Below the pieces are notes generated by a model, which saw only the letters and a program-made list of their open reading frames with translations, did no database searches and was not told the DNA's origin. A DNA stretch of 64,000 bases from Longimicrobiales bacterium. GTDB lineage: Bacteria; Gemmatimonadota; Gemmatimonadetes; Longimicrobiales; Gaopeijiaceae. Location of the stretch: NCBI GenBank assembly GCA_965198065.1, contig CBDAON010000004.1, forward strand, positions 736,001 to 800,000. The letters run 5' to 3'. Made by a program: the position numbers and the translations under genes. Each line of letters starts with the position of its first letter. Position 1 is the stretch's first letter. Positions 3,565-5,779 of the stretch are shown piece by piece.

Positions 3565-5779
3565 TCAACCCACGGGCGCCGCGGAAAGCACCTGGAGCTC
3601 GAAGGGCCCCTCTCCATCCGCCGCGGGAGCTCCGACGACCCGCACGCGCGCCCCCTCACCGACGTCCTCCTCGAGCAGCCGGAGGGCCAGCGGGTTCTGG
3701 ATACGCTGCTGAATCACGCGCTTAAGGGGACGTGCCCCGAACATGGGGTCGTAGCCCTCCTCGGCGAGCGCGATCTTCACGTCGTCCTCCACCTCGAGCA
3801 CGACGCCGAGCTCCTCGGCAAGGCGGCGGACCCGCTCGAGCTGGAGGTTCACGATCTGACGGAGGTCGTCCCGGTCCAACGGGCGGAAGACCACCACGTC
3901 GTCCACCCGGTTCAGGAACTCGGGCCGGAAGTGCCGGCGCATCTCGCCCATCACCCGTTCCTCTACCTCCGACCACTCGGCCCGGGGACCCTGCTCCAGG
4001 ATGTACTGGCTCCCTATGTTCGAGGTCATGATGACAACGACGTTCCGGAAGTCGACCGTCCGTCCCTGGGAATCCGTGAGCCGGCCGTCGTCCAGGATCT
4101 GGAGGAGGAGGTTGAACACCTCCGGGTACGCCTTCTCGATCTCGTCGAAGAGCACCACGGAGTGCGGCCTCCGCCTCACCGCCTCGGTGAGCTGTCCCCC
4201 CTCCTCGTATCCGATGTAGCCGGGCGGGGCACCGATGAGCCGCGCCACCGCGTGCTTTTCCATGTACTCGGACATGTCGATCCTGACCATCGCGCGCTCG
4301 TCGTCGAACAGGAACTCGGAGAGCGCCCTCGCGGTCTCCGTCTTCCCCACTCCTGTGGGCCCGAGAAAGATGAACGACCCGACGGGGCGCGCCGGATCCT
4401 GGAGGCCGGCCCGCGCCCTCCGCACCGCGTTCGCCACGGCAGCCAGCGCCTCGGCCTGGCCCACGACGCGCTCCCCCAAGAGCCCCTCCAGGTGCGTGAG
4501 CCGCTGGCGCTCAGACTCCATCAGGCGCGAGACCGGAATGCCTGTCCACTCCGCCACCACCTCCGCAATGTCGTCCGCCGAGACCTCCTCTCTCAGGAAC
4601 TTCCCGTCGGCCTGGAGCTCCTCCAGACGCGCTTCGGACTGGGCGACCTCCGACTGCGCGCGGGGGATCTGCAGCGGACGTAACCATTACGGTGTCCTGA
4701 ATGGCGACCTCCGACTGCGCGCGGGGGATCTCCCCGTACTGGAGCTGCGCGGCTCGCTCGAGATCGCCCACCCGTGTGGCCCGCTCGGCCTCCGACTTAA
4801 GCTCGTCGATCCGTTCCTTCGAGGCCTGGATGCGGGAGATGACGTCCTTCTCGGCCTGCCACTTCGCCTTCATGCCCGAGCTCTTCTCGCGCAGCCCGGC
4901 GAGCTCCTCCTCGATGGCCTCCCGGCGCTCCAGTGCGGAGCGGTCCTCCTCTCGGGCGAGCGCCTGGCGCTCGATCTCGAGCTGTGTGATCCGGCGCTCG
5001 AACTCGTCGATCTCCTCCGGAAGCGATTCGATCTCGATCCGGAGCCGGCTCGCCGCCTCGTCCATGAGGTCGATCGCCTTGTCCGGGAGGAAGCGTCCCC
5101 CGATATAGCGGTCGGACAGCTTGGCCGCCGCGATGAGCGCCTCGTCCCGGATCCGCACCCCGTGGTGAACCTCGTAGCGCTCCTTGAGCCCGCGGAGGAT
5201 CGCGATCGCGTCCTCTACGGAGGAAGGAGCCACGAAGACCGGCTGAAATCGGCGCTCGAGGGCGGGGTCCTTCTCGACGTGCTTCCGGTACTCGTCGAGG
5301 GTGGTGGCGCCCACGAGGCGCAGCTCGCCCCGGGCCAGCATCGGCTTCAGCATGTTCCCGGCATCCACCGCGCCCTCGGCAGCCCCCGCGCCCACGATCG
5401 TGTGCATCTCGTCAATGAATACGACGAAACGACCCTCGGACTCGGTGATCTCCTTCAGGACCGCCTTCATGCGGTCCTCGAACTCGCCCCGGTATTTGGC
5501 TCCCGCCAGCATAGCGGAGATGTCGAGCTGGACGAGCCGCTTGTCCACGAGAGACGTCGGGATGTCGCGGGCCAGCGCGTCGGCGACCCTCCCCTGGAGG
5601 AGCGAGACCCGGAGCCCCGCCTTCTCCAGCACCGGGCCGACGATCCCTCCCTCCTGCTCGAGCAGGGCCTGGAGAAGATGCGCCCCCGACACCTCGGGGT
5701 GTCCGGCGTCCCCCGCGGACCGCGACGCGGCCTCGAGGGCTTGTCCCGCCTTGACGGTTAGACGATCGAGTGCAGCCAT
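3565..5779 (-). pseudogene. clpB: ClpB disaggregase, disrupted (61-bp insertion frameshift plus in-frame deletion in NTD/NBD1)
   Basis: Split into ORFs 4511-5779 ([35 protein letters not shown], coiled-coil M domain) and 3565-4560 ([26 protein letters not shown]). Removing 61 bp from the 4642-4731 repeat restores [46 protein letters not shown]. The NBD1 Walker A is absent. Confidence 0.9.
4642..4731. repeat. Perfect 29-bp direct repeat flanking a 32-bp insert (repeat-spacer-repeat)
   Basis: GGCGACCTCCGACTGCGCGCGGGGGATCT at 4642-4670 and 4703-4731. Insert GCAGCGGACGTAACCATTACGGTGTCCTGAAT at 4671-4702. Confidence 0.95.

Follow-up and report, generated by a model that had tools for sequence, protein, structure and literature searches.

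Off-target integration by the type I-E system of E. coli and the resulting 'neo-CRISPR' loci were reportedly described by Nivala, Shipman and Church in 2018 (Nat Microbiol 3:310), and isolated and orphan CRISPR arrays are said to be the subject of Shmakov et al. (2020). In the accessible portions of further reports, off-target events are documented by shotgun sequencing of Cas1-Cas2-overproducing E. coli (PMC7054753), circumstantial evidence for off-target integration is given for two other species (10.1101/148544), and off-target sites used in vitro have repeat features in common (PMC6698737). Type I-E adaptation is described, in the sections available, as duplicating 28 bp, with a 33-bp protospacer that brings a PAM-derived G (PMC10011333). 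Motifs in two inverted repeats anchor the rulers that set the second insertion site, according to an excerpt of PMC5039180, and the canonical reaction uses an IHF-bound leader (partial texts of PMC10011333 and PMC5039180). Off-target acquisition also figures as one of three proposed origins of isolated and orphan arrays in the available part of PMC13142298. As far as these partial sources extend, prior support for natural off-target acquisition comes mainly from laboratory over-expression and circumstantial cases.

The window analysed here, a stretch of 64,000 nucleotides, corresponds to C4:736001-800000 of the genome G000 (3.05 Mb, 67% GC, 87.6% complete) and contains a clpB gene interrupted by a duplication with an insert. 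For one protein encoded nearby, the closest Atlas clusters belong mostly to Gemmatimonadota, which is no more than a lead. Identical 29-mers (4642-4670 = 4703-4731) flank a 32-bp insert, and the duplication cannot be extended; whole-genome comparison shows that the perfect 29-bp duplication around a unique insert reported in an earlier note is exact. By hand arithmetic at 67% GC, an exact 29-bp repeat inside 100 bp would arise by chance somewhere in 3 Mb with a probability of about 1e-8. The insert is 17/32 GC, and its lack of a second copy, observed before in the window, extends to the whole 3.05-Mb genome, where no 14-mer of it recurs and the best other match is 22/32. The duplication had been described as 29 bp because 4642 = 4703 adds one base to 28-bp copies. 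All 28+33 readings were enumerated, and the clpB unit can be read as a 28-bp duplication around a 33-nt insert with a 61-bp period, which is type I-E geometry. The features of the locus are as follows, A1 being one of the genome's own CRISPR arrays:

4643..4670, plus strand: first (leader-side) copy of the 28-bp target, clpB coding sequence in antisense; 18/28 against the A1 repeat
4671..4703, plus strand: insert (spacer) of 33 nt with a leading G; the 32-mer of the earlier note is 4671-4702
4704..4731, plus strand: second copy of the 28-bp target; the match reaches one base further left (4642 = 4703)
4511..5779, minus strand: 5' part of clpB, with a Clp_N fragment, deleted NBD1, AAA lid and coiled coil; 422 aa
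3565..4641, minus strand: 3' part of clpB, with NBD2 and the D2-small domain, severed from the 5' part by the unit
5567..5568, minus strand: junction of a second lesion, an in-frame loss of about 155 codons

The clpB unit is real and recent. Strains were compared on assembled contigs from four runs (X1, X2, X3 and X7) of 22 listed, the small-share runs X14-X22 being left out. A single 806-bp contig of X1, which is possibly the source sample of G000, covers 4290-5095 with the unit present and 0 differences. The contigs of X2, X3 and X7, from three other studies, jump exactly from 4641 to 4703, with 29 letters fitting both sides, and show 4-5 differences per 730-841 bp, corresponding to about 99.5% identity with G000. 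Because these three runs carry the empty site, the single-copy state is the ancestral one, and only about 0.5% divergence separates the strains with and without the unit. The insertion is therefore not 'fixed', as had been proposed, since three of the four runs examined show the empty site. In the suggested comparison with clpB of relatives, all 14 ClpB proteins examined cross the site gap-free.

A scan for isolated 28-29-bp duplications with 32-33-bp inserts, also suggested before, found three in G000, including the one in clpB. The search covered exact repeats of at least 20 bp at periods 40-99 across the whole genome and returned two more isolated units with a 61-bp period:

L001:5242-5330 (G000:C4:1619241): mutY unit, 28+33; early stop in mutY
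L002:5217-5306 (G000:C4:1860216), minus-strand orientation: intergenic unit, 29+32; convergent genes on either side

The intergenic unit begins 2 bp past the stop of a DUF4159 gene. A mismatch-tolerant scan at periods 30-120 gave no additional unit at 61. Once arrays, tandem copies lacking an insert and coding repeats that stay in frame are set aside, there are five isolated duplications that have an insert and a period not divisible by 3 (47, 61, 61, 61 and 64). Three of these five share the exact 61-bp period of the genome's two I-E arrays (binomial probability about 1.5e-4). Duplications with this period were found at none of 18 clpB and mutY loci of relatives.

The mutY site is empty in all three runs that cover it (X1, X2 and X3; X7 does not). 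X1 and G000 show 0 differences over 1,940 bp at mutY, yet X1 lacks the unit. A 1-bp loss near L001:5888, in the C-terminal domain of mutY, is common to G000 and X1 and absent from X2 and X3. Because this loss is shared by G000 and X1, and the unit is found in G000 only, mutY was likely damaged before the spacer arrived, unless X1 excised the unit.

CRISPR arrays and one remnant of a cas locus are found elsewhere in the genome:

G000:C4:1501851-1503282: array A1, 24 repeats, 61-bp period, orphan type I-E
L003:11283-12288 (G000:C4:1503282-1504287): Cas5 fragment beside A1, Pfam PF09704
L004, G000:C4:1749917-1750720: array A2, 61-bp period, orphan type I-E-like
L005:2308-3400: orphan array on C1, 37-bp repeat, 71-73-bp period, degenerating tail

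The type I-E system that the earlier note expected elsewhere in the genome is thus present in part: there are I-E arrays with a 61-bp period, and the repeat of one of them, A1, matches the site at 19/29, but cas1-cas2 was not found in the assembly. Profile searches of G000 (87.6% complete) found no cas1, I-E cas2, cas6e or cas7. The Cas5 fragment, located with proteins from relatives' I-E loci, corresponds to residues 90-200 of P0001, a full-length Cas5 of 231 aa from 10 public contigs, and is identical to it at 111/111 residues; the identity extends to two further members of its cluster of 10. The absence of any amino-acid change in this remnant indicates that the A1 operon was intact very recently. 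On its 3' side the fragment breaks off where an IS1595 copy ends; this copy shares 99.4% identity with another one and is truncated in turn, 25 bp from the first A1 repeat. These breakpoints suggest that an IS insertion in cas5 was followed by deletion of cas6e, cas1, cas2 and the leader, and that both events were very recent. As P0001 matched just 2 of 400 other genomes of the class, at 40-44%, and its named relatives are proteobacterial, the A1 system was likely acquired horizontally. I-E cas1 is present in 9/156 genomes of the same family and 20/300 of the same order, together with similar repeats. In GTDB, the A1 repeat occurs in two distant genomes, with cas genes near both; neither the repeat nor P0001 was found in viral contigs, and G001, a genome of the same genus, has no match to array A1.

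Array A2 contains two tandemly duplicated spacers and has no leader-like sequence upstream. At about C4:1750527 it shows a perfect palindromic junction, beyond which the repeats run the opposite way; this looks like an inversion through the inner palindrome of the repeat, ending at an IS3 fragment.

Other sources and causes within the genome or its relatives were considered and rejected. The 37-bp array on C1 has no isolated units at periods 70-74, the matches there being coding repeats and the array's own tail, and no Cas4-Cas1-type gene was found in G000. A Cas1 is encoded by 6 of the 30 closest relatives, and the three that were translated look like I-C or Cas4-Cas1 fusion types. Loss of host IHF/HU finds no support as a cause, with two intact family members in G000, as in 5/5 relatives. 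A third HU/IHF-family gene, frameshifted and truncated, which we take to be IhfB-like, lies at C4:1778200-1778432, about 28 kb from A2, and is an extra with respect to these five relatives.

The three duplicated targets resemble the repeat of A1. On the plus strand, the clpB target (4643-4671) agrees with it at 19/29 positions; the clpB-sense orientation adopted previously reaches 13/28 and would leave an insert that begins with C, with no G, so the plus strand is the better fit. The mutY target agrees at 17/29 and the intergenic target at 15/29. When strand and register are left equally free, random sites attain 19 at a frequency of 2.2e-4, 17 at 4.5e-3 and 15 at 4.4e-2. The intergenic unit by itself is only moderately repeat-like, its 15/29 being reached by 4% of random sites; for all three units together (sum 51) the joint null is about 4e-7. 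A match of at least 18/28 to the A1 repeat has a genome-wide frequency of 1.1e-4, and six other duplications score 11-15 against A1 with equal or more registers.

Nine of 28 positions (1, 9, 10, 16, 17, 18, 20, 21 and 27) do not vary among the three targets and the two repeats, compared with at most 8 in 200,000 null draws; the motif is derived from the same three sites, and the nulls include the choice of strand and register. The leader-distal inverted repeat, which serves as the ruler anchor, holds five of the nine. Agreement in the leader-proximal inverted repeat is limited to 3-4 of 6 positions across the targets; for the clpB target it is 4/6 there, against 5/6 in the distal one. A G occupies position 29 in 3/3 units and follows 24/24 A1 repeats, although the mutY unit yields G in both orientations and is not an independent case. 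Over 28 positions the targets in clpB, mutY and the intergenic region score 18, 16 and 14 against A1, and 14, 15 and 15 against A2. In G000 the A2 repeats are followed equally by A, G and C (4/4/4), and in four metagenome arrays with the same repeat the next base is mostly C. Since G follows all 24 A1 repeats and not the A2 repeats, the A1 system is indicated.

No leader-like sequence lies upstream of any of the three targets. The 100 bp upstream of the clpB unit are clpB coding sequence with 34% AT, as against 42-52% AT and a common AAGA end in the leaders of six relatives. In its testable sequence features, the clpB unit fits an off-target integration and not a functional array: it has one spacer and no leader, and neither cas6e nor cas7 was found in G000. 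The idea that such an insertion was seeding an array finds no backing at any of the three sites, each having a single spacer and no leader, with no cas1 or cas2 in the 87.6%-complete assembly.

Exact scans of viral contigs with the 32/33-mers of the clpB, mutY and intergenic inserts, which miss any mismatch, gave no hit, and the clpB insert has no full-length match in JGI metagenomes. In blastn searches against phage and plasmid records, the clpB and mutY inserts matched nothing beyond chance (best E 0.9 over 24 bp). The foreign source and adjacent I-E PAM proposed for the 32-mer thus did not emerge from the phage/plasmid, viral-contig or JGI searches. No protospacer was found for any insert in the collections searched with it or in its own genome, hence no PAM was seen. 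Self-derived spacers were rejected after examination of the three inserts and the array spacers, whose best other matches are only 21-25 of 32-33. The spacers presumably came from a foreign source, and the leading G would then be PAM-derived. On the plus strand, the insert at 4671-4703 reads as nine codons closing with a stop, followed by ATG, like a junction of two genes, which is a hint only.

The unit shifts the frame of the 5' part of clpB, which runs to a stop at 4511, and had been held to have knocked out a chaperone. Deletion of the 61 bp, said to restore a normal ClpB, does produce a single open reading frame of 717 aa, but the gene still lacks about 155 residues at 5567/5568. This second lesion spans model positions 66-219, taking in the second half of the N-domain and everything up to and including the NBD1 Walker A; its size is 155 codons in comparison with 9 of 14 relatives and 156 with 3 of 14, the remaining 2 being partial. 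X1 has both clpB lesions, the second on another X1 contig, and the unit-free contigs of X2 and X3 depart from the window sequence at the 5567/5568 junction. ClpC is intact in G000. In G001 (1.6 Mb, 92% complete), ClpC is present and no ClpB match was found; three other relatives have a full ClpB. With an in-frame deletion in the same gene, an intact ClpC and a congener with no clpB match, the knock-out reading is not supported. Because clpB has a second break, the insertion likely did no harm and left a neutral scar, not a working array.

Insert-free tandem duplications of 49 bp (C4:624517, a frameshift), 87 bp (C4:2626559, in frame), and 50 bp and 60 bp (C4:1706541 and C4:297493) are also present; the gene at C4:624517 is presumably rimO-like and that at C4:2626559 presumably encodes a DegP-like protease. 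The IS load of G000 amounts to 114 IS3-like and 16 IS1595-like hits. This load, together with the frameshifting duplication in the rimO-like gene, makes the genome look to be eroding. Signs of relaxed selection comprise the second clpB lesion, the older mutY frameshift, the 49-bp rimO-like duplication, the IS3-like hits and the 1.6-Mb sister genome lacking clpB; such scars likely survive where selection is weak. Given that G001 has no ClpB match, both early and late stages of genome reduction seem to be represented in the genus. Because the runs containing this genome are coded-organism and seawater samples, a host association is suggested only indirectly.

The clpB unit is best explained as the scar of a natural off-target type I-E Cas1-Cas2 integration, most likely neutral, to which we assign a probability of about 0.88. 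Natural off-target spacer integration had been proposed for this site before, and the 61-bp arrays, the two additional units, the repeat-like motif and the empty alleles bear it out. A type I-E Cas1-Cas2 would have docked on the repeat-like 28-mer on the antisense strand of clpB and inserted a 33-nt prespacer, leaving the 28-mer duplicated. The likely origin of the integrase is the I-E locus next to A1, to which the adjoining Cas5 fragment provides the link; that locus would later have lost cas6e, cas1, cas2 and its leader through the IS1595 insertion and deletion. The scar has likely persisted because clpB is dispensable in an eroding lineage. We consider this enzyme assignment probable; what was observed in its favour is the 28+33 structure with a G at the head of the insert, a target that resembles the repeat of the genome itself, an ancestral allele without the unit, the two sister units and the cas5 remnant.

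The same chemistry could have been carried out by Cas1-Cas2 acting in trans, from a plasmid, a phage, an unassembled locus or the A2 system; this explanation, which departs from the preferred one only in the source of the enzyme, is possible though unlikely. It would account for the lack of cas1 in the assembly and for the absence of the mutY unit from the otherwise identical X1, because the integrase may have been active after the A1 operon was lost. For the mutY difference between X1 and G000 to arise, the integrase must have been active after the two split very recently, or the sample must be polymorphic, or the unit must have been excised precisely. The difference also sits awkwardly with the missing cas1, which counts against the preferred explanation. 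The targets do show 14-15 matches to A2, but A1 fits better, with the G in addition, and the variable base after A2 repeats argues against that system. Moreover, the unchanged cas5 remnant places an intact A1 operon in the very recent past.

Explanations without a Cas integrase are far less probable. Replication slippage or end-joining that duplicated 28-29 bp and captured filler DNA is very improbable: tandem duplications of 49, 50, 60 and 87 bp do arise in G000, alongside two other insert-bearing duplications, of periods 47 and 64, but such a process would not yield 28+33 three times, a repeat motif and a leading G, and the inserts have no template in the genome. Slightly less credible still is an assembly or library artefact, such as a chimera, an adapter or a minority haplotype. 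The presence of the clpB unit in only 1/4 runs, possibly the source sample, and of the mutY unit in 0/3 covering runs would be compatible with it, but the separately assembled X1 contig reproduces the clpB unit without a difference and a second X1 contig has the other lesion; the three inserts are also mutually different, and an artefact has no reason to pick repeat-like targets. The least probable alternative is the footprint of an integrative element or transposon, with a long target duplication or att core and a 33-bp remnant. Although G000 is IS-rich, the inserts are unrelated and have neither element ends nor a transposase between the copies, every unit is more than 20 kb away from the nearest IS3- or IS1595-like hit, and no Cas1-family (casposase-like) gene was found in G000. 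Target duplications of IS elements are, in addition, generally much shorter.

Building on off-target integration as the origin of the clpB unit, a broader reading can be formulated, in which a horizontally acquired I-E integrase is a recurring endogenous mutagen in a genome starting symbiont-type erosion; as a whole, this is doubtful. Leader loss through IS damage, or nucleoid proteins that do not enforce leader specificity, would then direct integration to repeat-like sites in core genes, and the spacer, not the deletion, would have been the first hit in clpB. If this broader reading were true, the mutY unit difference would be a sign of ongoing acquisition by an integrase outside the assembly.

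Compared with canonical type I-E adaptation, as far as the available sections describe it, the clpB unit shares the 28+33 structure, the leading G and the leader-distal anchor at the canonical distance, but it differs in its location within a gene, the lack of a leader, the weak proximal inverted repeat, the single spacer and the absence of any remaining Cascade. Like the isolated and orphan arrays covered by the partial source, it is a repeat-spacer structure distant from cas genes; unlike them, its 'repeat' is host coding sequence that resembles the true repeat at 15-19/29 positions across the units. Because the 'repeat' is host sequence of such limited likeness, the origin of the unit can be read directly from the empty allele. 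No published title on strain-level before-and-after alleles was found, and natural cases or a site motif in Nivala 2018 and Shmakov 2020 may bear on this point.

The clpB locus is thus a well-supported natural case of an already known type of event, with unusually complete evidence. What this genome provides is three events, alleles lacking the unit that are about 0.5% and 0% diverged, the cognate repeat and a cas locus broken only recently. The three targets show the repeat positions on which a wild integrase depends when no leader is present, and 28+33 scars could be used as a record of lost CRISPR systems. As in E. coli neo-CRISPR loci, within what the accessible text on them reports, single repeat-spacer-repeat units lie off-array at repeat-like chromosomal sites with the type I-E period. 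In contrast to the E. coli experiments, in which Cas1-Cas2 was overproduced and oligonucleotides were supplied, the three units described here occur in a Gemmatimonadota-like genome from nature, where strains that differ by no more than about 0.6% show the alleles before and after insertion and the cognate system has just been lost.
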